Notes: generated by a model from the letters alone, not told the origin. A stretch of 64,000 bases of DNA from Candidatus Moraniibacteriota bacterium (GCA_040772365.1 JAXGYI010000006.1:4014-68013); one strand, 5' to 3'; counted from the first letter of the stretch, positions 41,826 through 58,135 are shown. Translations and numbers: made by a program.

Positions 41826-41914
41826 GGAGAGGTGCCAGAGTGGTCGAATGGGACTGACTCGAAATCAGTTGTCTGTTCTTGAATGGACCGTGGGTTCGAA
41901 TCCCACCCTCTCCG
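41826..41914 (+). tRNA. tRNA-Ser (anticodon CGA)
   Basis: Acceptor GGAGAGG/CCTCTCC, anticodon stem ACTGA/TCAGT with loop CTCGAAA, a long variable arm, T-loop GGTTCGAAT. Confidence 0.9.
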
Positions 41915-41968
41915 CACAAAGCTCATAAGGTAGAGTAAGACCCAGGGTCTTCGCAAAATGAGCAATCT

Positions 41969-41994
41969 AAAACCGCCATGAATTTGGCGGTTTT
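41969..41994. terminator. bidirectional intrinsic terminator
   Basis: AAAACCGCCA-tgaattt-GGCGGTTTT: a 9-bp GC-rich stem with A/T runs on both sides. Sits between tRNA-Ser(+) and a minus-strand gene. Confidence 0.6.
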
Positions 41995-42017
41995 AGTGTG
42001 TCTATATTTTTGTTTTT

Positions 42018-42821: not shown

Positions 42822-42941
42822 AATTTTTCGTCTAGGTTTTTTAAAATTATTTCAAAAATTGATTTTTAAGTAACACAAAAGGTCCCGCGAGCCGGACGAC
42901 AATCCCTTTCGAGACTGCCCGATGAACCTTTCGGAACATCG

Positions 42942-42988
42942 ACCTAGACGAATAAGCGCCGGTCACGAGACCGTTTCTATTCGTCTAG
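42942..42988. repeat. perfect 12-bp inverted repeat (CCTAGACGAATA ... TATTCGTCTAGG) with 23-bp spacer; a third CGTCTAGG copy at 42827-42838
   Basis: Read directly from the sequence. Lies about 100 bp downstream of the serine recombinase gene. Confidence 0.45.
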
Positions 42989-43087
42989 GATTCATATATT
43001 CTGCCATGCCCACGCCTTTCGTCATGGGTTTAGGCAATGTTGTACCCCAATTATTACATTTTTAAGGAACCTTTTCAATACCTGTGG

Positions 43088-44458: not shown

Positions 44459-44524
44459 ATAGTTATTACTTTATCTAATGAATGACGCAACCCTTGAATG
44501 AAGTCCAGACCCCTTAGAAATCTG

Positions 44525-45964
44525 CTAAAATCCCATCGGTTTTCTGGCAAAAACCCTTGGTGATCGCTTGTCCATTTTCACTGCCTCTCTGGCAACTATC
44601 GTAAAAGCATCAACCAAATCGTCGTGTTTTTCCTTGCCAAAACCAATGAGGTTTTCTATTAATTCTTCTGCTCCAATTTTGGGAAAGAGAATTCTACCAC
44701 TTGGGATAAGATTACTTATGGATGCAAGACGTGCGCGTTTGTCTGAAGTAACCTTACTGCCTTCAGCTTTGCAACCCTGAATGATTAACTGTTCAATGGC
44801 AACTCTTTGATATCCAACATCCTCAACAAAAATAATCCTATATCCCAAATATTGAAGCGATTCATACAGCAACTTAATTTGTTCAATGGTTTCTGTGAAA
44901 TTAAATCTGCTGTTTATTGGATTGGGCAAAATATAAATATGAAAATCTTTTCCATGTCCATAAATTGCAGCACTAACTATAGCAGTAAAGTCTGCTGACG
45001 TTTTTTGTGATATTGCCAAATCGGCTCCTATAATAACTTTCCTACATCTTCCCTTGGGTAAGGATGGATAATATTTGATTTGATCAGGATAAACAATCTG
45101 GTCTTCATCGGGAATTATCTCCAGCAGGTACTCACGTTTCCATGCAATCTCATTTCCAATGTTTTTATGTTCAATCTCAATATCTTTTAGAGTTGGATAT
45201 TTTCCTGACCACAATATTTCTCCTTTATCATCTACAAGAGGATAAGACTTAAAGACTCCGGTCGAACTTCCTTCTTCAATATCTCGTTTCAAATGCATCA
45301 GTAAAGAGTCTTCATGAAGAAGATTCCCAACAATCACAAGTTTTGTATTTCTATCTCCAGTAGGAATCACTTCACCCTTAAGCCAATCGTATGTTTTTTG
45401 TCGACCTTCTTTTGTTTTGGCTGATGCCATATCTTCAACATCGTCGCCAATAATTAAATCTGGGCGATGTGCTCCATGACGGAGTCCACGAATACTTTGC
45501 TCAGTAGATGCAACAGAAATTCTGGCGTTCATATTGGAAAAAACAAGAGAAGAAGAGCCCCACTCATCACTTTCTTCTTGAAAGGGTCCGAGATCATTTT
45601 TTAGTAACTGATTGCTTTCAAGCTCACGTTTAAGATTTATCATGTGCTGCTTTGCTTGATTTCTGGTTTGGCAAAGAATTAACACAAACTTCTTTTGTTG
45701 TTTTCCAAGAATTGCCCATATTGGATATGAGGTTGTAATTATGGTGGATTTTCCAGAACCCCGAAAAGCTACTATGTATAAATTTTTAACTTTTTTATCT
45801 TCCGTAAGATTAAACATTTCTTCTTGGAAATATGCAGTCTCATATTTTACATAATGAGGAAAATAGAAATTGAAAAACATGATATGACTTTCTTTAGTCA
45901 CCGCAATTCTGACAGCTCTGTCAGACATCATCCTATTAGTTAATTTTTTGTTTATTACTTTCAT
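44525..45964 (-). CDS. phage terminase large subunit
   Basis: Walker A 'AFRGSGKST', Walker B 'LIIGDDVED', C-terminal RNaseH-like nuclease 'IGADLAISQKTSADFTAIV'. Confidence 0.75.
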   Translation of the reverse strand: MKVINKKLTNRMMSDRAVRIAVTKESHIMFFNFYFPHYVKYETAYFQEEMFNLTEDKKVKNLYIVAFRGSGKSTIITTSYPIWAILGKQQKKFVLILCQTRNQAKQHMINLKRELESNQLLKNDLGPFQEESDEWGSSSLVFSNMNARISVASTEQSIRGLRHGAHRPDLIIGDDVEDMASAKTKEGRQKTYDWLKGEVIPTGDRNTKLVIVGNLLHEDSLLMHLKRDIEEGSSTGVFKSYPLVDDKGEILWSGKYPTLKDIEIEHKNIGNEIAWKREYLLEIIPDEDQIVYPDQIKYYPSLPKGRCRKVIIGADLAISQKTSADFTAIVSAAIYGHGKDFHIYILPNPINSRFNFTETIEQIKLLYESLQYLGYRIIFVEDVGYQRVAIEQLIIQGCKAEGSKVTSDKRARLASISNLIPSGRILFPKIGAEELIENLIGFGKEKHDDLVDAFTIVAREAVKMDKRSPRVFARKPMGF

Positions 45965-46344
45965 TTCCGCTTCTTAAAAGATGCGAGGCGCAAAGCTTCT
46001 CTAACTGCACTAGCTTGTTCTGGTGTTAATTCTTCTTGCGGTTCTGATTTTGTTGTAATCTCAACACGTTCTTTGAACTTTTCATGACGATGATTTAACC
46101 AAAATCTAATCGCTGGAAAATTCTTTTCTTTGATTAATGATATGAGTTGAGACTCGCTCATATCATTTACCAGGGCTTCACCTTCAGACAATGCTTCATC
46201 CAAAACTTTACGAAACTTCTTATCCTTATCTCGCCAACGATAAACGGTAGCTCGAGAAACTCCAGCTTTCTCGCAAGCCACTTGGATGATTGGAATTTTC
46301 TTGAGATTATCCAAAAAAAGTTTTTTAGTGTCATTGCTTTTCAT
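45961..46344 (-). CDS. HTH DNA-binding protein, terminase small-subunit-like
   Basis: 'IQVACEKAGVSRATVYRWRDKD' HTH. Sits directly upstream of the terminase large subunit with a 4-nt overlap. Confidence 0.5.
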   Translation of the reverse strand: MKSNDTKKLFLDNLKKIPIIQVACEKAGVSRATVYRWRDKDKKFRKVLDEALSEGEALVNDMSESQLISLIKEKNFPAIRFWLNHRHEKFKERVEITTKSEPQEELTPEQASAVREALRLASFKKRK

Positions 46345-46622
46345 ATTTGTTTTGCCTTTATTCCAAAAGTTTTATCAAATCGATTGATAATTGTTTGGCA
46401 ATATTCAGGATCAAGTTCGACCATCACACATTTTCTTTTGGTTTGTTCACATGCCACCATAGTTGAGCCGCTGCCTCCGAAGCAGTCATAAATAACTTCA
46501 CCGATTTCCGTACTATTGAGAATAATTCTGCGAAGTAGACCGATTGGTTTTTGTGTAGGATGCAATGAACTTTTATTTGGCTTTGGATAGTAAAGAATCG
46601 ATTTATCAATGATACGAGGCAA
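46341..46622 (-). pseudogene. truncated beta-class N6-adenine/N4-cytosine DNA methyltransferase (C-terminal fragment only)
   Basis: 'HPTQKPIGLLRRIIL...DCFGGSGSTMVA' (SAM-binding FxGxG end of beta-class MTases). No DPPY/NPPY catalytic motif in frame upstream. Confidence 0.55.
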
Positions 46623-46805
46623 ATAATTAAATGTTTAAGGAATAAAATATTGCTTAAAGATGATTTAACCACTGAAGATGAAGAGTTTCTTGGAAAATTA
46701 AACGAGGCACATAGCTTTCAACCATACTTAGGTAGTGGAAATAAATTCAAGGAAAGCGTTCAGAAATTATTTGAAAAATAGAATAATTAAGTATCTCATA
46801 AACAA

Positions 46806-49211
46806 ATGGAAAGTAAGCCATACTCAGTCTATATAGATCATCGCCCTACAAGGATAGCATTCTTAGTTAATCCTGATGGTGATCAAGCTTGGATTGATAG
46901 AATAATTGAATATAACAGAGAAAAATGGGGTGGAAGATTCAACCCCATTATTTTTACCGATGGAAAAAATATCGAAGATAAGTGGTGGAAATTCTTAAAG
47001 GATTATGATCCAGATATTATCAAGTCTACAATGCCACTTGAAGACGATCTTCTTAAAAAGATTCGAATATTTTTAACACCTTATTCTGTAGAAGTTCCTC
47101 GCCAAGATGAACAATATATACATATTCCTGATGACCCAGTTTCAATATTTCCCACCAAACAAGGAATTTTGCAAATTTCTAGAAGCTTCATGGATGATGC
47201 TGCGAGTCTGGTAATGTTTGATGTTGAAAAAGATACTCCTGATTCTATAAAAAAGTTTTTAGAAAGAAATTTTGGTGTTCAAGAGGATAATCAAAGTACT
47301 CCATATTATATAAGAAAGTCCCTAAGAAACTGCGACAAAAAAATATACAAAATTAAAGATTTTGAATCCCTAAATGAAGCCCTCTTAGATTTAGGAGATT
47401 TTCATAATAGAATTGTATTTCCTGCTCAAATATGTTCGATTCCAAATTATTTTAAAGACACCGCTTGGAGCAATGAAACAGAAAAATTTACAGTTGTTAT
47501 AGGAGACACGCCTGATGAATTAGCGTACCTATGGAACAGAGCTTTGCAGATTAAAAGCTGGCTAAGGCAAGATTTTACATGTCTTTGGTTGTCCAATGAA
47601 TTAGCAAATAATGAAATCATTAAGCCAGGATTAACAAAACTCTTTATTCGCTTTTCTGAAAGAGTTGGGAATGATAATTATCGTGGAATAAATTTCGTAT
47701 CTTTTTCATTATCGGAACAAGAAATAACTACTTTTTCATCAAGTATTGATGGATCATTATGGAGGCCACGGCAAATAATCAAGTACAATGAAATTCAAAT
47801 ACCCAATTTTGATAACAGGGCATCATTTTTTATTTTGAAACGAGGTCTCGAACTTTACAGGGCTCATTCCGAGGAAGAGCACATTATAATAAATGAACCT
47901 AATACAGAAGAGGGTGTTATGGGTGGTCAACATTGGGTTATTGATTTGCATATTCAATATCGGCCAGAATTATTCGAAAACATACAAGGAATAGATTACT
48001 GGTGGCAATTACCAAGAAGAGCAAATATTTTTCATAGCTTAAGGATGTTTAATAAGGAGACAAGAATAAATGAAGATGGGATGTTTAGTATTAAGATGCG
48101 AAGAAAATCTCACATTGAGCCAGATGAAAATATTTTAGTAGTTAGACTTCCACAAGAAAGAGGAATTTTTCATGCACTAACCTGTGGAGATAGTTATGAT
48201 TTTTATAAAGGAACTGACAGAGAACGATTTATGTCCAGACCTTTTGATTCCATGCAACGCTCAGATAAGGGCATGTATTTATCTGGAATTTTAAGCTTAT
48301 TTCCTGACCTGTTGAATGCTCATTACCAAATAGAAGATAGCTATTGGAGAAGTATTTTTGAAAAAATGTCTAACAGAAATGCTAATAAGGATCCCGATAG
48401 AAAAACAGAGATAAAAAACAAATTAAAGAAAATTATTGATAAAAATCAGGATTATAATGATCCTCAAAAACTAGATTATCTAGCTGAGAAAGTTTTAGTA
48501 ATGGCAAAAAATAATTCAGTACAAGAGGTTGAATTTTATTTCAAAGATTTTCTTAAAAATTATACCAACGACGAGGGAAAGAAATTTTCAGATTTAGAGA
48601 CAGAAGAAGCTGAGAGAGCAAAAAATGATATAAAGGATAATATTTCAGGCTTGATAGAGCAAAACATTTTATTAGCTGGCATTAAGCCTAGATGTCCGCG
48701 TTGTGGCTATAGAATTTGGTACCACATAAACGAAACTCAGCAACATATTGATTGTAAAGGATGTGGCCATATTTTTTCCCTAGATGGTGAAGAAAGGTGG
48801 TCTTATAAGTTAAACAGCCTTGTGAGATCCGCTTTTTCACTGCATGGGACAATCCCTGTTTTATTAGCACTCGGACAATTGCAACATGATGTTAGATCAT
48901 CGTTTATATTTTTCCCTGGAATTGAACTTATTTCGAAAGATGAAGAAGAAAAAATAGATAATGAAATCGATTTGATTTGTATTAAGGATGGAAAATTTAT
49001 TATAGGTGAGATAAAACAAACGATAGGATTATTTTGTCCGGAGGATTTCAAGCGCATGGAGAAAGTTGCAAAATTAATCAAACCAGATAAAGTAATTTTT
49101 TCTTCACTTGATAAGCAACCAACTGTATATGTAAATAAGGCAATTGAATCTTTAAGAAATAATCTTAAAGATTTGGAAATTGAAGTTGAATGGTATCAAC
49201 TCCATTTTTAG
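46806..49211 (+). CDS. large hypothetical protein with C-terminal zinc ribbon and possible PD-(D/E)xK nuclease-like motif
   Basis: 801 aa, very AT-rich. 'CPRCGYRIWYHINETQQHIDCKGCGH' followed by 'IDLICIKDGKFIIGEIKQ' (D...ExK spacing). No other recognisable domain. Confidence 0.5.
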   Translation: MESKPYSVYIDHRPTRIAFLVNPDGDQAWIDRIIEYNREKWGGRFNPIIFTDGKNIEDKWWKFLKDYDPDIIKSTMPLEDDLLKKIRIFLTPYSVEVPRQDEQYIHIPDDPVSIFPTKQGILQISRSFMDDAASLVMFDVEKDTPDSIKKFLERNFGVQEDNQSTPYYIRKSLRNCDKKIYKIKDFESLNEALLDLGDFHNRIVFPAQICSIPNYFKDTAWSNETEKFTVVIGDTPDELAYLWNRALQIKSWLRQDFTCLWLSNELANNEIIKPGLTKLFIRFSERVGNDNYRGINFVSFSLSEQEITTFSSSIDGSLWRPRQIIKYNEIQIPNFDNRASFFILKRGLELYRAHSEEEHIIINEPNTEEGVMGGQHWVIDLHIQYRPELFENIQGIDYWWQLPRRANIFHSLRMFNKETRINEDGMFSIKMRRKSHIEPDENILVVRLPQERGIFHALTCGDSYDFYKGTDRERFMSRPFDSMQRSDKGMYLSGILSLFPDLLNAHYQIEDSYWRSIFEKMSNRNANKDPDRKTEIKNKLKKIIDKNQDYNDPQKLDYLAEKVLVMAKNNSVQEVEFYFKDFLKNYTNDEGKKFSDLETEEAERAKNDIKDNISGLIEQNILLAGIKPRCPRCGYRIWYHINETQQHIDCKGCGHIFSLDGEERWSYKLNSLVRSAFSLHGTIPVLLALGQLQHDVRSSFIFFPGIELISKDEEEKIDNEIDLICIKDGKFIIGEIKQTIGLFCPEDFKRMEKVAKLIKPDKVIFSSLDKQPTVYVNKAIESLRNNLKDLEIEVEWYQLHF

Positions 49212-49229
49212 CTAAAACTTTTACTAATA

Positions 49230-50324
49230 ATGAATAATTACAAACATCTCCGAGATTGCATCTACTACAGCGAGCTATACGACCGCATGACAATCGACGA
49301 ATGCGAATGTTGGGATAGCGAAGTTTATGATGCTTATGTAAAATCGGGTAAAAAGTTTGACCCAGCAAAACCATCGCGAAGACTTCATGGCGGACTTTTG
49401 GCGGATCTTCACTTGCATTTTGTTAAAGGTGAACGCTATCTTGATAAGGAAACCACGATCAATGAATGGATGAAACGCGATCAAGCAAAAGATGAAAAAC
49501 TGGAAAATGCCATTGAGACAAAAGGCGTGCGTTGCCTTCATTGCAGTAGATCACTAACTAACTGCATTTCTCGTGATCTGATGATTGACTCTAAGGGCAA
49601 TGAAGAAGTTGTCTTTTTATTTGAATGCGACAAATGCCATAAGCGCAGAGCCTATTGGGAAAACGGAATTGAATGGCGACCAAAACCAGTATTGTGTGAG
49701 AAATGTAATTCAGAAATGGAAAGCAGTCATAATAAAAAAGGAAGCGTTGTTGAAACCAGTTACCGTTGCCTTAAGTGTCATCACAAAACCACTTTTAGCT
49801 ACGATCTTAATGAAAAAGAAGAAGCTATTGATCCAAACTTCGAATCCAAGCGAAAGAAGTATTGCCTTTCGAAAGAAGAAGGCATTGAATATTCTATCGG
49901 TAAAGGACATCTTGAGGCAGCAACCAATCTCATGAAAGATATGGAAGAAAGAGAATCTAATAGTGACCTTTATGATGCTATTGCAAAAATAAAGAAGCTT
50001 ACTGTTGCGGAGCTTCAAAGTTTCCTTGATCCAGTCATAGAAAAAGCTGGCTATACCAAGCTTGAGTTTGAAAAGCCAGATATTCAAAAGGATGTGGTTT
50101 TAGGATTCGGCATTCAAGATGCTAAATCTGGCAGAAATGACCGCGAAAGCATTTATGATCTCCAAAGACTTCTCAAAACTAGCTTAAAGCCTACAAATTG
50201 GCGTCTAATGAGCGACGGGGTGAACTACCGCCTTGGATACCTCCAAGGTCGTTTAAAGGGCTTGGAAGGCGAAGAAAATCTCCGAAAGCTTGTTGAATGT
50301 TATAATAAAAATAAGATGAAATAA
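49230..50324 (+). CDS. hypothetical multi-zinc-ribbon protein
   Basis: 364 aa. CxxC pairs 'CLHCSRS...CDKCHKRR...CEKCNSE...CLKCHH'. 18 nt after the upstream gene. Confidence 0.45.
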   Translation: MNNYKHLRDCIYYSELYDRMTIDECECWDSEVYDAYVKSGKKFDPAKPSRRLHGGLLADLHLHFVKGERYLDKETTINEWMKRDQAKDEKLENAIETKGVRCLHCSRSLTNCISRDLMIDSKGNEEVVFLFECDKCHKRRAYWENGIEWRPKPVLCEKCNSEMESSHNKKGSVVETSYRCLKCHHKTTFSYDLNEKEEAIDPNFESKRKKYCLSKEEGIEYSIGKGHLEAATNLMKDMEERESNSDLYDAIAKIKKLTVAELQSFLDPVIEKAGYTKLEFEKPDIQKDVVLGFGIQDAKSGRNDRESIYDLQRLLKTSLKPTNWRLMSDGVNYRLGYLQGRLKGLEGEENLRKLVECYNKNKMK

Positions 50325-50328
50325 ATTT

Positions 50329-51129
50329 ATGATAATTGATTCTCACATTCACATCTCACTATACAATGACAATGCAAAATCATTGCCGGAAGCTTTTGAT
50401 TTGTTCTTGCAAAAGATGGAGAAAAATGAAATAAGTGGCGCGATAATTATTCCGGATAATATAGAAGGCAGTGACAGCATTGCTGATTTGGAAAAAGCTA
50501 TTACATTGATTGGTGCGCGCAAAAACTTGTTCCTTCTGGGCAGTCCGCAAATCATTCAGAGAGGATCAAGTGAATTGGAAAAATATCGAAAGCTTTTGGA
50601 GGATGGAAAAGTAAAAGGACTCAAATTTTTTTCGGGTCACGATCCTTATTATCCGACCGATGAGCGCTGTCAGCCGTATTATGAACTATGTCAAAAATTG
50701 GATGTGCCGGTTTTATTTCATACTGGTGAGAACTCAGGCGACAGCGAATGTGGCAAATGGAATGACCCAAGATATATCGTTGAGGTAGCCAAAAAATATC
50801 CCAAACTAAAAGTTGTCATTACTCATTATTATTGGCCAAAAATGGAATATTGTTATGACATAACTAGGGACATTTCAAATATCTACTTTGAAACGGCGGC
50901 CATGGCTGATGCCGAAGTGGTTGAAAAAAGCGGCGGGATTGAAAAGGTCAAAGAAATATTGCAAAAAACTATTACTGATCGACCGGACAAAGTTATTTTT
51001 GGCACCGACTGGCCGATGTGCAAAATTGAGGAGCATGTTGAGCTAGTGAAATCATTGGGGTTGAATAAGGATTTAGAAGAAGGGATATTTTGGGGAAATG
51101 CAAAGAAAGCTTATAATCTTCCGTTATAA
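50329..51129 (+). CDS. amidohydrolase-2 family TIM-barrel metal-dependent hydrolase
   Basis: 'MIIDSHIH' HxH metal site, 'LFHTGE', 'VVITHYY', 'FGTDWPM' Asp. 4 nt after the upstream gene. Confidence 0.7.
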   Translation: MIIDSHIHISLYNDNAKSLPEAFDLFLQKMEKNEISGAIIIPDNIEGSDSIADLEKAITLIGARKNLFLLGSPQIIQRGSSELEKYRKLLEDGKVKGLKFFSGHDPYYPTDERCQPYYELCQKLDVPVLFHTGENSGDSECGKWNDPRYIVEVAKKYPKLKVVITHYYWPKMEYCYDITRDISNIYFETAAMADAEVVEKSGGIEKVKEILQKTITDRPDKVIFGTDWPMCKIEEHVELVKSLGLNKDLEEGIFWGNAKKAYNLPL

Positions 51130-51191
51130 TTTGCCAAATAATTCAAAAGACGCTAGCATATAAAAATTAAAAAATAATACTATTAAGTAAC

Positions 51192-51956
51192 ATGAAATCA
51201 CAAATTTACAATCAGGCCAAATATTACGAAATCGCTTTTAGCTTTGTTGATTCAGAAAGACAAGCCGATTTGTTTGAGAAGTTTATAAAAAAATATAGCA
51301 AGACGGGCGTAAAATCTGTTTTGGATTTGGCTTGCGGAACTGCTCTGCAACTCAGGGAAATGGCAAAAAGAGGATACAAATCAATCGGCCTGGATGCTAG
51401 TTCAAAAATGCTGGATTATTTGAAATGTGAATCTGAAAAAAATGGATTGAATGTAAACACAATCAAAGCTGATATCAATAATTTTAAGCTCAAGGAAAAA
51501 ATTGATTTTGCGTATATAATGATGGGGTCTATCATCTATGTCAAAAGCAATGATTTATTTCTTTCACATTTAAATTCAGTCGCGGATTCGCTAAATTCCG
51601 GCGGACTGTATCTTATAGAAAATCTCGCTATAAATTGGGCTGATCCATCTTTTTTTAAACCGCAACGCTGGATAATGAAAGAGGGTAAAATTAAGGTAAA
51701 AACAACTTATCAAATAATTCCGAAAAATCCGCTGAAACAAACAGTGACCCAAATATTAAAGATGGAAGTAGACGACAATGGAAAAAAGATGGAATTTATC
51801 GATAAGGATGATCTTAAGATAATTTTCCCTGAAGAATTGAGACTCCTTGTGGATAAAAATAGTAAGTTTGAATTAATTGGTTTTTTTGAGAGAAATAACG
51901 CGAAGCTATTAAAGAATGTTTCGCCCGATAATATTGTTTTATTAAGGAAAAAATAG
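51192..51956 (+). CDS. class I SAM-dependent methyltransferase
   Basis: Motif I 'VLDLACGTA' and post-I acidic 'GLDAS'. No DNA-MTase catalytic motif. Confidence 0.75.
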   Translation: MKSQIYNQAKYYEIAFSFVDSERQADLFEKFIKKYSKTGVKSVLDLACGTALQLREMAKRGYKSIGLDASSKMLDYLKCESEKNGLNVNTIKADINNFKLKEKIDFAYIMMGSIIYVKSNDLFLSHLNSVADSLNSGGLYLIENLAINWADPSFFKPQRWIMKEGKIKVKTTYQIIPKNPLKQTVTQILKMEVDDNGKKMEFIDKDDLKIIFPEELRLLVDKNSKFELIGFFERNNAKLLKNVSPDNIVLLRKK

Positions 51957-52024
51957 TTTCATTTTAAAATTATATAAGGAAAATGACCGGCTTTTCAGTC
52001 GGTCATTTTGTTTTGTGAAGATTC

Positions 52025-53221
52025 TCACAGTGATGCCCTGCGGATTTTAAGCTTTTTTAAAGCTGGGTATACACCGCAGTGGTTGGTGTCTTTGTATAGG
52101 TGTCTAGACATTGCCATGTTTTGCAAATCGCAGTGTCCACCGGATTTGAGCAAAGAGCAGTTGATGCATCCGGAAAAGGTATCGATTCGGAGTTTTCGTT
52201 CCTCTCCAAAGGCTTGAAGCCATGCGTCTGAAAATCTTGTATAACGAAGGTTATATTTTGATTTCCAGTTTTCTGCAGCATAGTAATTGTCGGCATACAA
52301 AAATCCATCCGAACTTACATATGCCACGAAAAGGCCTGGCTCCGGCCTCCCAGTTATTCTGACCAACTCCGAGATCGACTCGTAGATATTCGGATTTGAA
52401 ACAGGATATGTAGGCATCGGAATTGAGCGATTAGATTCGTAGCTCCTCCTGGCTTTTTCGAGCTCCAAAAGTTTCAGGAACTGATTTTCGCACAGAAGAA
52501 GTGACGGATTTTTCTTCGCTCTTCCGATTGGCAGGATGTCATTGAGAGAAAAATCGATGCCACTTTCAGCGCACCATTTTGCGGCTTGGATCATCTCGTC
52601 AATATTGTCATTGAAGATCAGTCCTTGGATTGCGAATGCCCTCCTTTTCGATTTGAGATTATTGATTATGCCCAAGATTCGCTTTCCTTGTATATGCCGT
52701 AAAATCGCGGTGCCTTTTTCTCCGTCAAAACTCAACACCAGAAAAACATCTTTGGGGATATCATCCACATTGATATTTTTCTCAAACTCAAGCCCGTTGG
52801 TTAGAAGATTACAGTTTAGCCCGATCCTCCTGGCATAAGTTACAAGTTCTATGCAATCTTTCCGCAGCAATGGATCTCCGCCGGTAAAGTATACATTTAA
52901 AACCTGCAACTTTCTGAGTTGATCTAGGATGTTTTTCCATTCGGTCGTGGACAACTCATCTTTTCTCGGTTTTCCGGCAGAGATGTAGCAGTGCTCGCAA
53001 CGCAAACCGCAACTTCGGGTAAGTTCCAGGTGTACTACTAATGGTGATTTTAGCGGGCAGGGTTTTGTTGTTAATTCGACAGGATAATCGGACAGTGGTT
53101 GATTGTCTTTGTTCAGGAAAATCAATTTTCCATCACCTGTTGATCGGATATTGCAGTAGCTTTCATGCCTTTCGATTTCTATATACATGGAAACCTCCTT
53201 GATTAAGTTGTTAAGGTGCAT
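52025..53221 (-). CDS. radical SAM enzyme with C-terminal SPASM domain
   Basis: 'LTRSCGLRCEHCY' CxxxCxxC, and a C-terminal 'CINCSLLKSGGHCDLQNMA...HCGV' auxiliary-cluster Cys pattern. Confidence 0.8.
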   Translation of the reverse strand: MHLNNLIKEVSMYIEIERHESYCNIRSTGDGKLIFLNKDNQPLSDYPVELTTKPCPLKSPLVVHLELTRSCGLRCEHCYISAGKPRKDELSTTEWKNILDQLRKLQVLNVYFTGGDPLLRKDCIELVTYARRIGLNCNLLTNGLEFEKNINVDDIPKDVFLVLSFDGEKGTAILRHIQGKRILGIINNLKSKRRAFAIQGLIFNDNIDEMIQAAKWCAESGIDFSLNDILPIGRAKKNPSLLLCENQFLKLLELEKARRSYESNRSIPMPTYPVSNPNIYESISELVRITGRPEPGLFVAYVSSDGFLYADNYYAAENWKSKYNLRYTRFSDAWLQAFGEERKLRIDTFSGCINCSLLKSGGHCDLQNMAMSRHLYKDTNHCGVYPALKKLKIRRASL

Positions 53222-53283
53222 CTTCTTTGACTTCCAAGACTATCATATCAATTTTGTTTAGTCAAAATTACCTGCGCGAAATC

Positions 53284-53335
53284 TTGACAAAAGCAATATT
53301 TATCTGTATAAAGATATGAACTGCATTTTTGCAGT
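53284..53335 (+). promoter_or_regulatory. near-consensus sigma70 promoter (TTGACA-N17-TATAAA) plus palindromic operator-like site ACTGCA-N4-TGCAGT
   Basis: -35 at 53284-53289, -10 at 53307-53312, palindrome at 53320-53335. About 55 nt upstream of the RNHCP/radical-SAM operon start. Confidence 0.45.
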
Positions 53336-53388
53336 CAATCAAACGGATTGCAACTTAACAACAGAATATACGATAAAAGGAGGCTGTG

Positions 53389-53703
53389 ATGGCAAAGCGA
53401 TTTTCAAGGCGTATCGAGGATTTTGTCTGTGAGAACTGTGGGGAGCTTGTTGAGGGTAACGGGTACACGAATCATTGTCCCAGATGCCTTTTTAGCAAAC
53501 ATGTCGATGTTAACCCGGGAGACAGAGCGGCAACTTGTGGCGGAATCATGGAGCCGATCAGTATTGAGGGTGGAAGAAAGGGCTTCATGATAACATTCCG
53601 ATGCAAGAAATGCGGTCATACGAAAAGAAACAGATCATCTGAAGTTGATGACATGAACAAAATCATTGAGCTTTCCAAGGGATATGCTCAAAAAAGGAGG
53701 TGA
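53389..53703 (+). CDS. RNHCP-domain zinc-ribbon protein
   Basis: 'GYTNHCPRC' (RNHCP-like motif) plus 'CENCG' and 'CKKCGH' CxxC pairs. Strong SD AAAGGAGG. Confidence 0.55.
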   Translation: MAKRFSRRIEDFVCENCGELVEGNGYTNHCPRCLFSKHVDVNPGDRAATCGGIMEPISIEGGRKGFMITFRCKKCGHTKRNRSSEVDDMNKIIELSKGYAQKRR

Positions 53704-53707
53704 TGCC

Positions 53708-54991
53708 ATGAATATCTTTATCCCAAGTGTTCCACATCTGGTTCACATAGAAACGACTTACGCTTGCAATCAGAGCTGTCGTTTCTGTTACAACCCTAAC
53801 CGCAACATGAAAATTGACCGGACGATTATCGATGGTATCGTTATGTCAATTTTCGAAGCATGGATTCCTCATGTGTATTTGATCGGAGGAGAACCCAGCT
53901 TGCTCGGTGCGAAGAAGCTCAATGAATACATAGAACTTCTCTCGCAGAGATCGTCGGTCACTATCGTGACAAATGGCCAAGTTTATCTCGAAGGCCTTTC
54001 CGATAAATTGGCCTGCATCGGGATACCTATGCATGGCATCAGCGAAACTCACGATTTTCTTGCTGGAAAAAGCGGAAGCTTCGAAACAGCAATCAAGTCG
54101 GTCGAGCGGTATGTGAAAAGAGGATTTGATGTCCGGTGCATACCCGTGCTGACAAAGACCAACTTCGACCAGATGTATGATGTCATCGGGTTAGCGAAAG
54201 AGCTCGGGATGGAAAGCGTCTTCGTAGACAGATACGAGGATGGCGGCATAGGCAGTCTTCGCTCATTGGAGCTTAAGCCATCACTTGAACAATTCAGGGT
54301 GGCGCTGGGGCAAATGATCGAAGGCAGAAATGATTTCGGTATCCCCGTTGGATGGGGAACGGCCATACCGTTCTGCTTGGATGAAAGGTTGATCACCGAA
54401 AACATGTTTGCGGATTGTGGAGCAGGTATTACATTCTGCGCCGTCAATCCCAAGGGTGAAGTAAGGCTGTGCAACCAATCCGAGCGGATTTACGGCAATG
54501 TGTTGAACGAACCGATGAATGAAATCTGGCACAAACCGGAACTTTCGGAGTTCCGCGATCTTGGATGGGTTGAAAAACCATGTCTGGGTTGCGCGGTTTT
54601 GTCAGATTGCATGTGCGGTTGTAAAGTTGATGCTAACCACTCGGAAACATTCTGCATCGACTACGCCGTAAGGGAAAATGGTAGCTTTTGCGAACCCAAA
54701 CCCTTGATTCATGATCGGGAAGGCTCGGGCATTCCTCACGAATTGCGTCGCTTCAAACTGAACAAGTACGCGCGACTCAATTCTCAACATAAGGAAAAAT
54801 ATCTGGTGACTCAATACCAGACAATTATCCTTGACGACATCGCCCTGTCTATGATGCAACAAATACTGTCAGGTGTAGTATGTGAAGAAACCCTGATAAG
54901 TATGAATGCTGAATTCGTAGATGAGGACGAGGTGAGGAAGTTTGTGTCTGTCCTGGATCAAGTCAAGGCAATAGACATTATCAAGGAGTGA
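53708..54991 (+). CDS. radical SAM enzyme with SPASM domain
   Basis: 'ETTYACNQSCRFCY' CxxxCxxC, C-terminal 'CLGCAVLSDCMCGCKVD' SPASM. The ATG at 53708 has SD AAAAAGGAGGTGA. Confidence 0.8.
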   Translation: MNIFIPSVPHLVHIETTYACNQSCRFCYNPNRNMKIDRTIIDGIVMSIFEAWIPHVYLIGGEPSLLGAKKLNEYIELLSQRSSVTIVTNGQVYLEGLSDKLACIGIPMHGISETHDFLAGKSGSFETAIKSVERYVKRGFDVRCIPVLTKTNFDQMYDVIGLAKELGMESVFVDRYEDGGIGSLRSLELKPSLEQFRVALGQMIEGRNDFGIPVGWGTAIPFCLDERLITENMFADCGAGITFCAVNPKGEVRLCNQSERIYGNVLNEPMNEIWHKPELSEFRDLGWVEKPCLGCAVLSDCMCGCKVDANHSETFCIDYAVRENGSFCEPKPLIHDREGSGIPHELRRFKLNKYARLNSQHKEKYLVTQYQTIILDDIALSMMQQILSGVVCEETLISMNAEFVDEDEVRKFVSVLDQVKAIDIIKE

Positions 54992-54994
54992 ACA

Positions 54995-55933
54995 ATGGAA
55001 AGAGAGCTGGCAGTGCGAGATTGGCACTGGGAAGTCACAAAAAAATGCAACCTGAAATGCCGCCACTGTATACTCGGGGGCTGTAGCAGTCAGGAGCAGG
55101 AGTTGACGACTCAGGATTCGCTCAGGGTCATATCTCGCATTGTCCAGCTTGGAGGAAAAACCCTCAGGATTACCGGTGGGGAGCCTCTTATGCGAAAAGA
55201 TCTAGGCCTAATTATTCGGGAGGCACACGCTTCTGGATTAGGCCTAGACTTAATAACTAACGGGACAATGTTAGACGATGACTTCCTGAGAAAGTACGGA
55301 CAGTGTATCAGTCACATGGCAATCAGTATTGATGGACAGAAAGAAGCCCATGAATATCTGAGAGGGATAGGGTCGTATGAAAAGTCCATACTGGCTGCAA
55401 AGAAGATTATGGACGTGGGTATAGATCTTTCTGTCTACATTACGGTACACTCATTAAATGAAAGCTCACTCGATCTTCTTGTGGATGAACTTGTGTCCCT
55501 TGGGATTGGAAGTTTTCATTTTAATGAAATCAATATGGAAGGGAGAGCATCGAAAAATCGGCATTTGCTTCTCGGACGGGAAAAGACTTCCAATAGACTT
55601 GATCGCATATTGTCCCAGCTACAAAAAGTCGTAGACGTTGGGCATGTTTCTCGCGATTCAAGCTGCTCGATCTCTTCAGACTCGGTCTACCTTGCTTCGG
55701 ACGGAAGAATCTATGCTTGCGTGGAGATAGCTTTTAAATCTCCCGAGCAAAAGATTGCCCATATTCTCGACCATGGGGCTGAAGGCAGGATAAACCGGTT
55801 CTTTTCAGAAGTGGTTATCCCGAAAGACTGCATTTGCCGATATTCATCATTTAGCATGCAAGGTATTAGTGTGTTACTTAATGAATCGGAGAGATGCCCA
55901 ATTCTAAAGGAAAGGAGGTTTGACAATGGATAG
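54995..55933 (+). CDS. radical SAM enzyme (possible SPASM/twitch C-terminus)
   Basis: 'VTKKCNLKCRHCILGG' CxxxCxxC. C-terminal Cys residues 'CVEIAF...DCICRY'. Confidence 0.75.
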   Translation: MERELAVRDWHWEVTKKCNLKCRHCILGGCSSQEQELTTQDSLRVISRIVQLGGKTLRITGGEPLMRKDLGLIIREAHASGLGLDLITNGTMLDDDFLRKYGQCISHMAISIDGQKEAHEYLRGIGSYEKSILAAKKIMDVGIDLSVYITVHSLNESSLDLLVDELVSLGIGSFHFNEINMEGRASKNRHLLLGREKTSNRLDRILSQLQKVVDVGHVSRDSSCSISSDSVYLASDGRIYACVEIAFKSPEQKIAHILDHGAEGRINRFFSEVVIPKDCICRYSSFSMQGISVLLNESERCPILKERRFDNG

Positions 55934-56492
55934 TCATCTGCGTAAACTGTACTCAGAGTTTAGTTTTCTCTACCGGGACATTCGATCTGTTTGCGCAGAT
56001 TGTAAAGATCATGACTGCGAGGGATATGTGTGGCTTCTGAAAGACGAGGCGTCCTTGCTGTATGATCTGAACGTTCCCATAGTGGAAATAAACGATAGTA
56101 CCTTTTTCATCCACTCATTCGAAGAGGTTGATGGATCATTATCGATCGACAAGCCAAAGCCGCCATGTAATCTGAGGCGCGATGGACTCTGTTCGATATA
56201 TGATTCAAGACCCTTGGTGTGCAGGATGTATCCGGTTGGACTCGTTACGGTGGATGGTGAGGTTTTGCTTGTCCTGCACAAGGACTGCAAATTCTCACGC
56301 GATATCAACGGCGAGGCTAAGGCAGCATTCATCGCGCAAGTGATTGAAGTGCTGAAACGGGCATCACCTGATCTTCTTGTGGAAGTCATGACTTCCTACA
56401 GAGAGGTTGATGCAATCTCGGCCTTTCCTGAAGGCCCCAACACCTATGAGGTTATCATGCCTTTTAGGTCTCTCATCCAAGAAAGGAGGTGA
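55926..56492 (+). CDS. YkgJ-family CxxCxxCC cysteine-cluster protein (putative Fe-S/Zn-binding)
   Basis: 'CADCKDHDCEGY...RRDGLCSIYDSRPLVCRMYP' matches the YkgJ/UPF0153 consensus. Confidence 0.6.
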   Translation: MDSHLRKLYSEFSFLYRDIRSVCADCKDHDCEGYVWLLKDEASLLYDLNVPIVEINDSTFFIHSFEEVDGSLSIDKPKPPCNLRRDGLCSIYDSRPLVCRMYPVGLVTVDGEVLLVLHKDCKFSRDINGEAKAAFIAQVIEVLKRASPDLLVEVMTSYREVDAISAFPEGPNTYEVIMPFRSLIQERR

Positions 56493-56498
56493 GCGGTT

Positions 56499-56615
56499 AT
56501 GTCGAAGTGCAAAGCTGTTTTGGACAGCCAGAAGGTGACCAAGATCACGGTCAGGAAGAAGGGCGAGAAGGCGACGGAGGTGTCGAAGGAAGTTGCGGCG
56601 ACCAAGAAGCCCTGA
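56499..56615 (+). CDS. unannotated 38-codon Lys-rich small ORF (MSKCKAVLDSQKVTKITVRKKGEKATEVSKEVAATKKP)
   Basis: ATG 6 nt after the YkgJ stop, preceded by AAAGGAGGTGA. Strongly AAG-biased Lys codons. Below the 60-aa cutoff of the ORF track. Confidence 0.35.
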   Translation: MSKCKAVLDSQKVTKITVRKKGEKATEVSKEVAATKKP

Positions 56616-57043
56616 AGAGCGTGGCGGTCTTGCAGTGAACTCTAACAAGGAGATTCGGTTTAAAAAACTGGGTCTCCTTTTTCTTTATACTATAATAATT
56701 TTCGAAACACCGTACTGTCTTATTCCTCAAAATAAGACAGTGGCTGTCCCGTGTCTCATTTGTCTCATTTTGCCCTCAAAAACCCGACCCGACCTCTTCA
56801 AATCCCAAGACTGGACAGACCCTCAAAAAAGCCTTATAATTCCCTATATATTTGGGTTCCAGACCGAGGTAGCCCGCTAAAGGTCCTTGTGCACGCTTTC
56901 GCTACGTGAAGATTTTTTAGAGCCGCAATACATACAGCAGTAAGGATTATGATTATGACGTATTGTGTGTGTTGTGCGATACAGTTGCGTAAAAGGGCAT
57001 GTGGCTTTATAATAGAGTCGTATGTTTTATGTGAGGAGATGAT

Positions 57044-57574
57044 ATGCTAATCTTGTGTAGGAGAACTATGCGACTGTTCAAGGGTGTGGGTATAGGTGTA
57101 GCAGTGTCGTGGTGTGTACCAGGAAGTGTGTGGGCTGTGTGTCCCGTATGCACGGTTGCTGTTGGCGCTGGCGTAGGACTGTCGCGCTATTTAGGCGTAG
57201 ATGATACTATTGCAGGATCATGGATTGGCGCACTAACAGTATCAGTGATTTTGTGGACCAATAGCTGGTTGGAGAAAAAAAACATACGATTTCGTTTTCG
57301 TGATGCCGTGGTGACATTATTGTATCTTGTGCTTGTAGTTGTGCCATTGTATTGGAGTGATATTGTAGGGCACCCACTCAACACACTGTGGAATGTAGAC
57401 AAGTTGATACTCGGTATTGCTGTTGGCGGTGGAGTGTTTTATGGTGCGGTGCAATGGTATGCATATCTCAAGGCACGCAATAATGGACGCAGTTATTTTC
57501 CATTTCAAAAGGTTGTGATGCCGTTGGTAGCGGTAGCGCTTGTGAGTATAGCATTTTATGTGATTACAAAATAA
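57044..57574 (+). CDS. hypothetical membrane protein
   Basis: 176 aa with a signal/TM N-terminus and several helices; host-like GC. Confidence 0.4.
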   Translation: MLILCRRTMRLFKGVGIGVAVSWCVPGSVWAVCPVCTVAVGAGVGLSRYLGVDDTIAGSWIGALTVSVILWTNSWLEKKNIRFRFRDAVVTLLYLVLVVVPLYWSDIVGHPLNTLWNVDKLILGIAVGGGVFYGAVQWYAYLKARNNGRSYFPFQKVVMPLVAVALVSIAFYVITK

Positions 57575-57586
57575 CGATATAGTACT

Positions 57587-58135
57587 ATGAGCAGTGATCT
57601 AAAAAAATTGAATGAGTTTGTGGAGAAAATTGACCACATGAAGAAACAGGATAAGATGGATCTGTCATCTGACCAGGATTTGAGTCTCGCGATCATGAAC
57701 CTCATTAGCATTGAAGAGCATTTCTTTTTTACAGCAGAGAAGACGGGGAAAAGTGAGTATTTGATGTTACTGAAAGAGGTTCGCGAGATGCGCAAGGTAT
57801 TGCTTCAAAAAATTATCAAGGAATATGAAGGTGAAGTATGGTGTATTTCCAAACACCTACTTGCAGCAAGTATGCGTCTTATGGAAGTCGGTACAAAGCA
57901 GTTGGGACAAGGCAATGATGCGGAGGCGCAGGAGATGTTTCAGAAGTCCTATGACCTCTATGGGATGTTTTGGGCGTTGAATATGAATTTAATCGGATCG
58001 GATGATGTGAAGAAGGCTGGCGGAATCAAAAAAATTGACGCGAAGGCGCTGAATAAAAATGACAAAGAAAAGAGTGGCTTTTCGGGGAAGCTACGCGACC
58101 TCGTGCGCAAGGCGATTGACTGCTGTATTGAGTAG
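57587..58135 (+). CDS. hypothetical soluble protein
   Basis: 182 aa, charged/helical; no motif recognised. Confidence 0.45.
   Translation: MSSDLKKLNEFVEKIDHMKKQDKMDLSSDQDLSLAIMNLISIEEHFFFTAEKTGKSEYLMLLKEVREMRKVLLQKIIKEYEGEVWCISKHLLAASMRLMEVGTKQLGQGNDAEAQEMFQKSYDLYGMFWALNMNLIGSDDVKKAGGIKKIDAKALNKNDKEKSGFSGKLRDLVRKAIDCCIE

Follow-up and report, generated by a model that had tools for sequence, protein, structure and literature searches.

The window, a 64,000-nucleotide stretch of DNA from Candidatus Moraniibacteriota bacterium, holds a compact locus encoding three radical SAM enzymes, two small cysteine-containing proteins and a short peptide. Five of the genes lie in a row on the plus strand: an RNHCP zinc-ribbon gene (53389-53703, alternative start 53386; 104 aa), rSAM-B (53708-54991; 427 aa), rSAM-C (54995-55933; 312 aa), a gene for a YkgJ/CxxCxxCC-type Cys protein, here called YkgJ-like (55926-56492, alternative start 55920; 188 aa), and a precursor peptide gene (56499-56615; 38 aa), the product of which we propose as the substrate. 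From RNHCP, the first gene, to the peptide, the last, successive gaps are 4, 3, -8 and 6 nt, and an intrinsic terminator (56647-56679, plus strand; a 15-bp stem, then a T-run) starts 32 nt past the peptide stop codon. The five genes form a translationally coupled operon that this terminator closes. The remaining enzyme, rSAM-A (52025-53188, minus strand; 387 aa), is transcribed divergently; its longest ORF reaches 53221, and the gene caller favors the start at 53188. An earlier note on this DNA had placed all six genes where we find them and had inferred the coupling of the plus-strand genes, which the gaps and the terminator bear out.

The same gene set recurs with conserved gene order in 59 related loci from independent genomes, so the clustering is far beyond chance; this is the neighborhood conservation that the earlier note had proposed as a check of its reading. 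Many hosts are ultra-small symbionts, either CPR bacteria or DPANN archaea. The loci are spread over roughly twelve CPR/Patescibacteria lineages, DPANN archaea and one gut Firmicute, and the system is rare and sporadic, with 47 clusters at 50% identity. Its conserved core consists of the peptide, rSAM-B and the YkgJ-like protein; rSAM-C is usual (about 80% of loci), RNHCP is found in bacteria only, and variable tailoring genes surround this fixed core. Natural gene fusions join RNHCP to rSAM-B (P0053), rSAM-B to rSAM-C (P0106), rSAM-C to YkgJ-like (P0291 and about 16 others) and rSAM-B to YkgJ-like (P0351), together connecting all four proteins. Among the conserved neighbors across related loci, we found no exporter, protease or immunity gene.

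Radical SAM enzymes and their neighbors

All three enzymes meet the Pfam Radical_SAM profile PF04055 (53.4, 51.6 and 77.1 bits vs GA 29.5), and the CxxxCxxC cluster cysteines of each are invariant in family alignments. The motif reads CGLRCEHC in rSAM-A, CNQSCRFC in rSAM-B (C20, C24 and C27; Radical_SAM E 1.6e-13) and CNLKCRHC in rSAM-C (Radical_SAM E 2.3e-21). The earlier note had counted at least two SPASM enzymes. Taking as our criterion a SPASM domain match together with the motif CX9-15GX4C ... CX2CX5CX3C ... C, we find a full SPASM domain (PF13186/TIGR04085) in rSAM-B only. Here PF13186 is matched at E 6e-9 (36.5 bits vs GA 21.5), and all seven cysteines are conserved (C237-x12-G250-x4-C255, C292-x2-C295-x5-C301-x3-C305, C316); an eighth invariant cysteine, C223, lies upstream of the motif. 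The rSAM-C protein of the window has no Pfam SPASM match, and some of its homologs give weak half-SPASM matches (E about 5e-4 to 1e-3). These matches, along with the invariant C-terminal cysteines in an alignment of 44 sequences (C224, G237-x4-C242, C281, C301), fit a one-cluster ‘twitch’-type domain, and we infer from the alignment that rSAM-C probably has a single auxiliary cluster ligated by C224, C242, C281 and C301.

The C-terminal region of rSAM-B, at about residues 348-424 (window 54749-54979), is modeled by AF2 as a beta3-alpha3 domain of topology beta-beta-beta-(beta)-alpha-alpha-alpha (pLDDT 84-97). This topology fits an RRE/PqqD-like domain, a winged helix-turn-helix, but homology is not statistically established: only 3 members out of 18 gave PqqD Pfam matches, all weak (E 0.012 at best), no match was found among PDB and NCBIfam sequences, and a comparison with a PqqD sequence by hhalign yielded P = 0.046. 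The structures closest to rSAM-B are SkfB, SuiB, anSME, ChlB, PqqE and CteB, which are peptide or protein maturases (SkfB and SuiB mature RiPPs, anSME a protein), and we counted this toward a peptide-maturation reading. The public annotation of rSAM-B is ‘AdoMet-dependent heme synthase’.

None of the three enzymes could be assigned to a described family. Their best NCBIfam matches (NirJ, AhbD and MftC) score 64-104 bits vs cut-offs of 265-650. The earlier note had held that its reading would fail if these proteins fell into well-characterized non-peptide families and the neighborhood were not conserved with any small peptide; none reaches the cut-off of such a family, so this condition does not hold. 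Among the identities that we rejected, MftC (TIGR03962), the top NCBIfam match of rSAM-B, scores 64.8 bits vs 265 and has no Mft neighbors, PqqE (TIGR02109) scores 53.8-83 bits vs 381 (rSAM-B 53.8) with no pqq genes alongside, and AhbD/NirJ (TIGR04545/04051/04055) score 63-104 bits vs 500-650 with no tetrapyrrole context. The PapB ranthipeptide maturase (NF047865; rSAM-B 36.8 bits vs 340), SkfB (TIGR04403; rSAM-A 73.4 and rSAM-C 59.4 bits vs 300) and StsB (NF045574; rSAM-C 101.2, rSAM-A 70.5 and rSAM-B 34.1 bits vs 625) are also far below their cut-offs. Similarity to the prokaryotic viperin of PADLOC (pVip) is limited to the N-terminal radical SAM core, residues ~1-155 of 257-262, and NCBIfam viperin gives 48-74 bits vs a cut-off of 180. 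Curated families, the PDB and the literature yielded nothing covering this system.

The YkgJ-like gene is present in 52 of 56 clustered loci. PF03692 is matched by 25/25 aligned family members (best E 1.7e-6), but the window protein itself, at 20.1 bits, falls slightly below the GA of 23. Seven cysteines are invariant (C23, C26, C31, C81, C89, C99 and C121). An AF2 model (pLDDT 85) matched no PDB fold (Z <= 3.6). We regard the YkgJ-like protein as a probable Fe-S protein and core component. The RNHCP protein, for which the earlier note had suggested a domain search, matches PF12647 well above threshold (E 1.9e-28, 98.7 bits vs GA 24). Its motif reads TNHCP, and an alignment of 39 sequences shows C15, C18, H30, C31, C34, H39, C51, C73 and C76 to be invariant. 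RNHCP is missing from the DPANN loci, where the peptide gene takes its position; since the archaeal versions lack it, RNHCP is best read as a helper and not as the substrate.

Upstream on the plus strand lie an Amidohydro_2-family metal hydrolase or decarboxylase (50329-51129; 266 aa; PF04909 E 3e-25) and a SAM-dependent methyltransferase (51192-51956; 254 aa; Methyltransf_25 E 1.3e-13), the best NCBIfam match of which, a daptide RiPP methyltransferase, reaches only 45 bits and is far under the cut-off. An aminotransferase-like protein and a GNAT are also nearby. The amidohydrolase adjoins the core in 14/59 loci, in varying positions and orientations, and the methyltransferase in 9/59. By blastn, the 6.5 kb from amidohydrolase to peptide (50321-56877) constitute a shared cassette, 94% identical in DNA to one related locus (L010) and 80% to another (L002), with unshared flanks. 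The two genes thus behave as optional and travel with the core, in keeping with the tailoring role suggested for them in the earlier note. rSAM-A also lies inside the cassette. It keeps C341-x2-C344-x8-C353...C371 and has no Pfam SPASM match, and a homolog adjoins the core in no more than about 7 loci. The earlier proposal that all three radical SAM enzymes belong to one system stands for rSAM-B and rSAM-C; rSAM-A is an accessory outside the conserved core and, like the amidohydrolase and the methyltransferase, lineage-specific.

The 38-amino-acid peptide

The last gene of the operon is preceded by a strong RBS, AAAGGAGGTG, that is conserved in relatives. In the window it encodes a peptide beginning MSKCKAVLD, which reads MSKCKAVLDSQKVTKITVRKK and then continues into a Lys/Ala/Glu-rich tail. 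Homologous peptides are intact in 53 of 60 loci and frameshifted in one more (L011), the remainder being truncated contigs that could not be assessed. They follow the pattern MSKC[K]A[V][L]D..K[VI]..[IL].[V]K.K plus a variable tail, which is acidic in several lineages. M1, S2, K3, C4 and D9 are invariant and K12 and K21 nearly so, while the codons for invariant and conserved residues vary freely, with all 6 Ser, both Cys and 6 Leu codons in use. This comparison of sequences identifies the 38-codon ORF as a real gene under protein-level purifying selection. No NCBIfam or Pfam family, precursor models included, matches it.

The peptide accompanies rSAM-B in every assessable locus, bacterial or archaeal and regardless of gene order, and is the most faithful co-occurring partner of the SPASM enzyme in both domains. 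It is also tied to rSAM-C: Ala6 is present in 42/42 loci that carry rSAM-C and in only 2/10 that lack it (Fisher p = 6e-8), varying in the other 8. The loci without rSAM-C are scattered over the rSAM-B tree, which argues that the losses were independent. Co-occurrence, purifying selection and this covariation all favor the hidden ORF as the peptide of the system, as had been suggested.

A putative peptide-maturation system

In our interpretation the locus encodes a RiPP-like system, not described before, in which radical SAM/SPASM enzymes mature the 38-aa peptide as their substrate; we assign this reading a probability of roughly 0.7. Comparative evidence supports the earlier note, which had seen here a candidate novel RiPP/cofactor-maturation system. 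At the level of genomic comparison, co-occurrence and covariation establish the precursor and the enzymes; that the adjoining radical SAM enzymes chemically modify the peptide is the most likely inference, and the modification was not observed.

Among known systems, the ranthipeptide/SCIFF group (CteB, Tte1186, PapB) and QhpD likewise pair a SPASM enzyme with a short, widely conserved Cys peptide, often without an exporter, and CteB matches rSAM-B in structure and sequence. Ranthipeptides have six Cys in a C-terminal core, whereas our peptide has a single Cys near its N-terminus; the putative recognition domain also lies at the C-terminal end of the enzyme instead of the N-terminal end, and a second radical SAM enzyme, the YkgJ-like protein and RNHCP are partners. 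PapB and QhpD form Cys-to-Asp/Glu thioethers, a chemistry that the invariant Cys4...Asp9 pair would suit. SkfB, SuiB (streptide) and anSME differ from rSAM-B in domain order and share only 15-19% sequence identity, and the peptide core lacks Trp, the acceptor residue of SuiB. FliB, a flagellin lysine N-methyltransferase, has a PF03692-like Cys motif and needs its [4Fe-4S] for SAM-dependent Lys methylation (PMC8598068). The YkgJ-like protein resembles it in its CxxCxxCC-type Cys-rich motif, and the proposed substrate is Lys-rich, with K3 invariant and K12 and K21 near-invariant. Unlike FliB, however, the 188-aa YkgJ-like protein has C-x2-C-x4-C in place of C-x4-C-x3-CC, shows no detectable homology outside the Cys motif and frequently occurs as a fusion with a radical SAM enzyme.

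By our proposed mechanism, peptide residues 12-21, an amphipathic segment, would dock on rSAM-B at its C-terminal beta3-alpha3 domain, taken to be RRE/PqqD-like. With the SAM cluster and two auxiliary clusters, rSAM-B would then carry out hydrogen-atom abstraction and thereby modify the invariant N-terminal core (S2, K3, C4 ... D9). Our preferred chemistry, held only tentatively and by analogy, is an intramolecular thioether of ranthipeptide/QhpD type from Cys4-S to Asp9-C. In anSME and SuiB the auxiliary clusters are fully ligated; in sactisynthases such as CteB, by contrast, one site stays free to bind the Cys of the substrate. The invariant C223 suggests fully ligated clusters in rSAM-B, which weakens the thioether guess specifically. 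rSAM-C may next modify, or require, Ala6 or Val7, with epimerization or further C-H functionalization as possibilities. The YkgJ-like protein might act as a [4Fe-4S]-type partner, either supplying electrons to the radical SAM enzymes or methylating Lys in a SAM-dependent, FliB-like manner, while RNHCP, as a Zn- or Fe-Cys4 ribbon, may aid the bacterial enzymes as reductant or peptide chaperone. The scaffold could then be decorated in a lineage-specific way, here by the Amidohydro_2 protein, the methyltransferase and rSAM-A. Given the lack of a conserved exporter, protease or immunity gene and a core that is invariant across two domains, a bacteriocin is less likely as the product than a molecule with a physiological role, be it a signal or something cofactor-like. 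Several points count against this explanation. There is no biochemical evidence, the RRE homology is unproven, the YkgJ-like protein of the window misses its Pfam threshold, the conserved N-terminal and variable C-terminal parts reverse the usual leader-core layout, and with no linked protease or exporter there is no evidence of classical RiPP release.

The peptide could instead be a sacrificial scaffold, as in PQQ (PqqA/D/E) or mycofactocin (MftA/B/C) biosynthesis, from which a small redox-active or signaling molecule is excised from S2-K3-C4...D9 and tailored. The radical SAM enzymes would cross-link or oxidize N-terminal residues, the amidohydrolase would excise or decarboxylate, and the methyltransferase, aminotransferase and GNAT would tailor. 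In those systems, too, an rSAM-SPASM enzyme goes with a small peptide that is highly conserved, and the putative PqqD-like recognition fold may be common to both; a core invariant from CPR to DPANN with a freely varying tail recalls PqqA and MftA, the leading family matches of rSAM-B include MftC and PqqE, there is no conserved exporter or immunity gene, and small-molecule enzymes (Amidohydro_2, aminotransferase-like, GNAT) are near. Yet no conserved peptidase goes with the core, no MftB/D/E/F or PqqB/C/F homologs are present, and the putative excision and tailoring enzymes are confined to a minority, 14/59 loci at most. The residues that are conserved lie toward the N-terminus and do not include an aromatic one of the kind used by PQQ and mycofactocin, and so sporadic and rare a system on a mobile cassette is unlike a housekeeping cofactor pathway. 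We consider this route possible, though unlikely.

Less probable still is an anSME-like reaction in which rSAM-B or rSAM-C oxidizes Cys4 to C-alpha-formylglycine in a C-x-A-x-x context without any cross-link. anSME has eight Cys that fully ligate two clusters, and rSAM-B equals this count with the eight Cys that are invariant in its SPASM region. The sulfatase motif is C/S-x-P/A-x-R; the peptide's C4-K-A6 fits its first three positions, and the rSAM-C-linked residue is the Ala at +2 from Cys. However, the peptide has only this part of the motif, with Leu or Met replacing the Arg at +4, the neighborhood lacks a sulfatase-like protein, the anSME NCBIfam model is outside the top matches, and the invariance of Asp9, Ser2 and Lys3 is left unexplained. 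That the substrate is no peptide at all but a tetrapyrrole (as for AhbD and NirJ) or an RNHCP-bound nucleic acid, the peptide being a co-conserved subunit or regulator, we find very doubtful: the heme synthase annotation, the place of NirJ and AhbD among the best NCBIfam matches, the weak similarity of RNHCP to transcription-factor and RNA-polymerase zinc ribbons and a basic tail that could bind nucleic acid are outweighed by NirJ/AhbD scores 5-8 times under cut-offs, a neighborhood without heme or siroheme genes, the dispensability of RNHCP in archaea, the acidic tails of several lineages and the Ala6/rSAM-C covariation, which is hard to explain unless an enzyme reads Ala6.

Returning to the peptide-maturation reading, its boldest form, which we offer as speculation, is that rSAM-B, rSAM-C, YkgJ-like and RNHCP make up a four-protein Fe-S complex that produces a new modified peptide, or a peptide-derived cofactor or signal, shared between CPR bacteria and DPANN archaea via inter-domain transfer. 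If this is true, the chemistry at the N-terminal Ser-Lys-Cys...Asp core and Ala would be unseen in known RiPP classes, and the YkgJ/CxxCxxCC fold would be a dedicated radical SAM partner.

Gene content of the locus

Reading this locus from the sequence alone, the earlier note had proposed a peptide- or cofactor-maturation system, and ORF listing and domain scans confirmed every gene that it named here. An operon on the plus strand runs from an RNHCP zinc-ribbon protein (53389-53703; PF12647, E 1.9e-28) through the radical SAM enzymes rSAM-B (53708-54991; Radical_SAM and SPASM domains) and rSAM-C (54995-55933; Radical_SAM) to a YkgJ-like Cys-rich protein (55926-56492; PF03692, 20.1 bits, slightly below the gathering score) and a 38-codon ORF (56499-56615), upstream of which lies the ribosome-binding site AAAGGAGGTG. 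The gaps between these genes measure 4, 3, -8 and 6 nt, and a terminator with a 15-bp stem (56647-56679) ends the operon, the structure of which is established. The third radical SAM enzyme, rSAM-A (52025-53188/53221; Radical_SAM), is transcribed divergently on the minus strand. An Amidohydro_2 protein (50329-51129; PF04909) and a SAM methyltransferase (51192-51956; Methyltransf_25) are encoded on the plus strand. A hairpin between the convergent methyltransferase and rSAM-A genes (51980-52009), with a 13-bp stem and T-runs on both strands, is probably a bidirectional terminator. An Rfam scan of 49-58.5 kb returned only a tRNA-Gln and no riboswitch upstream of the operon. Two genes without a family match (57044-58135), encoding a predicted membrane protein of 176 aa and a protein of 182 aa, separate the cassette from this tRNA; they are not conserved beside the system in other loci.

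The earlier note had ascribed SPASM domains to at least two of the enzymes. rSAM-B does carry a full SPASM domain, but it is the only one that does. Its profile matches SuiB, SkfB, PqqE, anSME and CteB in the PDB, and because of these profile matches rSAM-B looks like a peptide maturase. The public annotation, 'AdoMet-dependent heme synthase', is not supported. No protein of the locus meets any curated NCBIfam cut-off: dozens of radical SAM families were matched, all several-fold below threshold, the best of them (NirJ, AhbD, MftC, SkfB and PqqE) five- to eight-fold too low, and nothing in NCBIfam matched the peptide, the YkgJ-like protein or the amidohydrolase. A defence system was rejected, as PADLOC gave just generic viperin-core matches to the radical SAM N-termini.

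A constrained peptide gene and its partners

rSAM-B has more than 400 database homologues, and those that are named come almost all from Patescibacteria/CPR. Scanning one genome per species recovered 59 loci. The bacterial loci belong to Saccharibacteria, Berkel-, Nealson-, Staskawicz-, Dojka-, Magasanik-, Sung-, Taylor- and Gracilibacteria, Microgenomates and Gottesmanbacteria; further loci come from DPANN archaea (Woese-, Nano- and Pacearchaeota) and from the gut organism Firmicutes bacterium CAG:822. The human-gut locus (L057) holds a complete system, so the system is not confined to CPR/DPANN or to groundwater; 69 public contigs carry its 30-aa peptide (CCY46860.1). CPR-like cassettes also occur on contigs binned as Bdellovibrionales, Caldithrix, Gammaproteobacteria or Methanosarcinales (L010, L004, L011, L018, L034 and L043), a sign either that short contigs were mis-binned or that the cassette has spread further by horizontal transfer.

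The small ORF recurs throughout this set. In bacteria a homologous ORF directly follows the YkgJ-like gene, and in DPANN loci the peptide gene lies directly upstream of rSAM-B, the place that RNHCP occupies in bacteria. The peptide was found in 53/60 loci; five of the seven remaining contigs end too early, one ends right after the YkgJ-like gene (L052), and one carries a frameshifted copy (L011). At assessable loci the co-occurrence of peptide and rSAM-B is complete, whatever the gene order or domain of life, and the linkage between peptide and enzyme is well established. Across 53 distinct peptides M1, S2, K3, C4 and D9 are invariant, position 12 carries K or R, aliphatic residues fill positions 13, 16 and 18, and K21 is present in 48/53. 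Beyond residue 21 the sequence varies freely, being Lys-, Pro- or Ser-rich or acidic, for a total length of 21-60 aa. All six codons are used for Ser2, both for Cys4 and six for Leu8, and the constraint therefore acts on the protein rather than on DNA or RNA. Judged by this conservation, the small ORF is a genuine gene under strong constraint. All matches of a profile search with the peptide were stand-alone peptides of 30-57 aa that carry the label hypothetical. A public gene caller chose instead a 49-aa GTG-start ORF (56489-56638) in a different frame that overlaps the 38-aa gene. We rejected it in favour of the 38-aa frame; since its frame is conserved in near-identical loci only, it is probably, from sequence comparison, an erroneous call that masks the true peptide gene.

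Tblastn and neighbour clustering delineated a fixed core made up of rSAM-B (56 clustered loci), the YkgJ-like protein (52) and, in bacteria only, RNHCP (at least 37); rSAM-C is present in about 80% of loci. Optional genes around this core encode the amidohydrolase (in 14 loci), the methyltransferase (in 9) and rSAM-A (in about 7). The interpretation that the earlier note gave of the locus is supported, with the correction that these three genes are accessories. Other lineages place different accessories near the core, among them a B12-binding radical SAM enzyme (5 loci), an aminotransferase-like protein (6) and a GNAT protein (5), and a second type of methyltransferase is linked to the core in DPANN (7 loci). 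Peptide natural-product clusters are usually built in this way, with tailoring enzymes that change around a fixed core.

Some lineages depart from the common arrangement. RNHCP is missing from the DPANN loci L019, L031, L033, L036, L037, L047, L053 and L056, and several of their peptides have acidic, not basic, tails. In Dojkabacteria-type loci (L013, L016, L017, L020 and L021) rSAM-C is separated from the YkgJ-like gene, here more divergent, by an aminotransferase class I/II-like gene (about 389 aa); three of them (L017, L020 and L021) encode the peptide on the other strand, at a distance from the operon end. One patescibacterial locus without rSAM-C (L022, 11863-12220) encodes two tandem peptide paralogues, MSKCKSSLDQNK... 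and the 60-aa MSKCLPILDAEK...

The core proteins are also found joined in natural fusions, which we observed between RNHCP and rSAM-B (P0053, 534 aa), rSAM-B and rSAM-C (P0106 and about 5 others, 722-731 aa), rSAM-C and the YkgJ-like protein (P0291 and about 16 other representatives, 467-496 aa) and rSAM-B and the YkgJ-like protein (P0351, 649 aa). With all four proteins joined in this way, the fusions suggest that RNHCP, rSAM-B, rSAM-C and the YkgJ-like protein form one machine.

Two of these partners are poorly understood. In alignment the YkgJ-like protein keeps seven invariant cysteines (C23-x2-C26-x4-C31, C81, C89, C99 and C121), and its model (pLDDT 85) has a fold without a PDB counterpart. 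The family is small: among 1.84 billion representatives, 47 clusters fall at E <= 1e-30, and of characterised proteins our searches returned only FliB with a comparable Cys motif. The FliB motif binds a [4Fe-4S] cluster that SAM-dependent lysine methylation needs (PMC8598068). The RNHCP alignment shows two conserved Cys/His knuckle pairs, and the protein bears only a weak likeness to rubredoxin-like and transcription-factor ribbons. Sequence searches of RNHCP and the YkgJ-like protein against the PDB gave nothing significant, and no paper on RNHCP (PF12647) was found in the literature searched.

Proposed substrate recognition and chemistry

Ala6 of the peptide depends on rSAM-C. It is present in 42/42 loci with rSAM-C versus 2/10 without (Fisher p = 6e-8), where Pro, Ser, Gly or Thr replaces it, and Val7 shows the same trend (36/42 versus 4/10). 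Loci without rSAM-C are scattered over a neighbour-joining tree of rSAM-B, and several are sisters of loci that kept it (L035/L032, L038/L050 and L048/L046, rSAM-C absent versus kept), so the losses were independent, and each relaxed position 6. From these sequence data, the covariation is difficult to account for if rSAM-C neither reads nor modifies that region of the peptide. Together with the conserved peptide and its co-occurrence with rSAM-B, it bears out the peptide-maturation reading of the earlier note. RNHCP as the modified substrate can be ruled out, as archaeal loci without it still keep the peptide; RNHCP is a helper, not a substrate.

Residues 348-424 of rSAM-B form a confidently modelled domain in which three or four strands precede three helices, a topology that PqqD-type RiPP recognition elements share. 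R347, N358, E363, Y365, T368, Y370, Q371 and T372 are invariant in this C-terminal part of the alignment. Sequence support is marginal: a profile of the domain found only a chance match in the PDB and no match in NCBIfam, Pfam PqqD matched marginally in 3/18 members, and hhalign against a K. pneumoniae PqqD sequence entered by hand aligned the expected helix at P = 0.046 only. On its modelled fold, a PqqD-type recognition element is likely but unproven, and we treat it as a lead.

We propose that residues 12-21 of the peptide would bind this domain as a strand and that rSAM-B would then modify the invariant N-terminal core. rSAM-C may act at or beside Ala6-Val7, the YkgJ-like protein could supply an Fe-S function, as an electron relay or in FliB-like methyl transfer, RNHCP would assist in bacteria, and the optional enzymes would tailor the product.

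The cross-links made by SuiB, PqqE and MftC are Trp- and Tyr-based, and the peptide core has no aromatic residue, which excludes them. Within this core, only Ser2, Lys3, Cys4 and Asp9 offer reactive side chains that are invariant. Our leading guess, a tentative one made by analogy, is a Cys4-Asp9 thioether of the kind made by PapB and QhpD. Formylglycine in its place remains alive: in alignment rSAM-B has an eighth invariant cysteine, C223, upstream of the SPASM motif, a hint that the auxiliary clusters may be fully ligated, as they are in anSME.

In its proposed mode of action the system resembles the radical SAM/SPASM maturation pathways of ranthipeptides/SCIFF, sactipeptides, streptide, mycofactocin and PQQ. 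It fails the NCBIfam membership test of each curated family of this type. Unlike in those systems, the precursor has a single Cys and a conserved N-terminus, the putative recognition domain is placed differently, and the YkgJ-like protein and, in bacteria only, RNHCP are obligatory partners. Literature searches on RNHCP, the SKCKAV motif and radical SAM enzymes or RiPPs of CPR, DPANN or Saccharibacteria turned up no account of the system; subscription journals were incompletely covered and an earlier description is possible. Apparently this is a well-defined, undescribed peptide-maturation module characteristic of CPR and DPANN.

Mobility and biological role

The system is accessory and mobile. 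A tRNA-Ser(CGA) (41826-41915) is followed by a low-GC stretch to about 52000 (0.34-0.39 versus 0.45-0.50 elsewhere) that encodes, on the minus strand, a large serine recombinase (43088-44458), a helicase/terminase-like protein (44525-45964) and an HTH protein (45961-46344), and also holds an N6_N4 methylase fragment. This island (41826-52000, about 42-52 kb) looks like an integrated element, and the cassette sits at the end far from the tRNA-Ser. Just upstream of the cassette, two large genes (46806-50324; 801 aa and 364 aa), each with several CxxC zinc-ribbon motifs, have no Pfam, NCBIfam or PADLOC family and lie outside the block common to the window and loci L010 and L002. The 6.5-kb block 50321-56877 is 94% identical to the L010 contig, the flanks of which are unlike those of the window. 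Archaeal rSAM-B proteins are nested among bacterial ones at 48-57% identity, indicating inter-domain transfer. No relatives were found on IMG/VR viral contigs, and thus the system is not phage-borne.

No conserved transporter, protease or immunity-like gene was found among the neighbours of the loci. Given the invariant core and the lack of linked export or immunity genes, we regard a physiological product as probable, not an antibiotic. As partners of radical SAM enzymes, the orphan domains RNHCP and YkgJ/CxxCxxCC gain their first functional handles. The module is experimentally tractable and brings a specific residue-level prediction: the Ala6/rSAM-C covariation is an unusually specific and cheap-to-test hypothesis, and a small peptide with enzymes of ordinary size makes heterologous reconstitution realistic. 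A large part of microbial diversity consists of CPR bacteria and DPANN archaea, which have minimal genomes; to our knowledge, almost none of their secondary or cofactor metabolism has been characterised. Here a compact, mobile five-gene module carries a 21-residue peptide core common to two domains, and since this core is nearly invariant in both, its product probably matters for CPR/DPANN physiology or host interaction.
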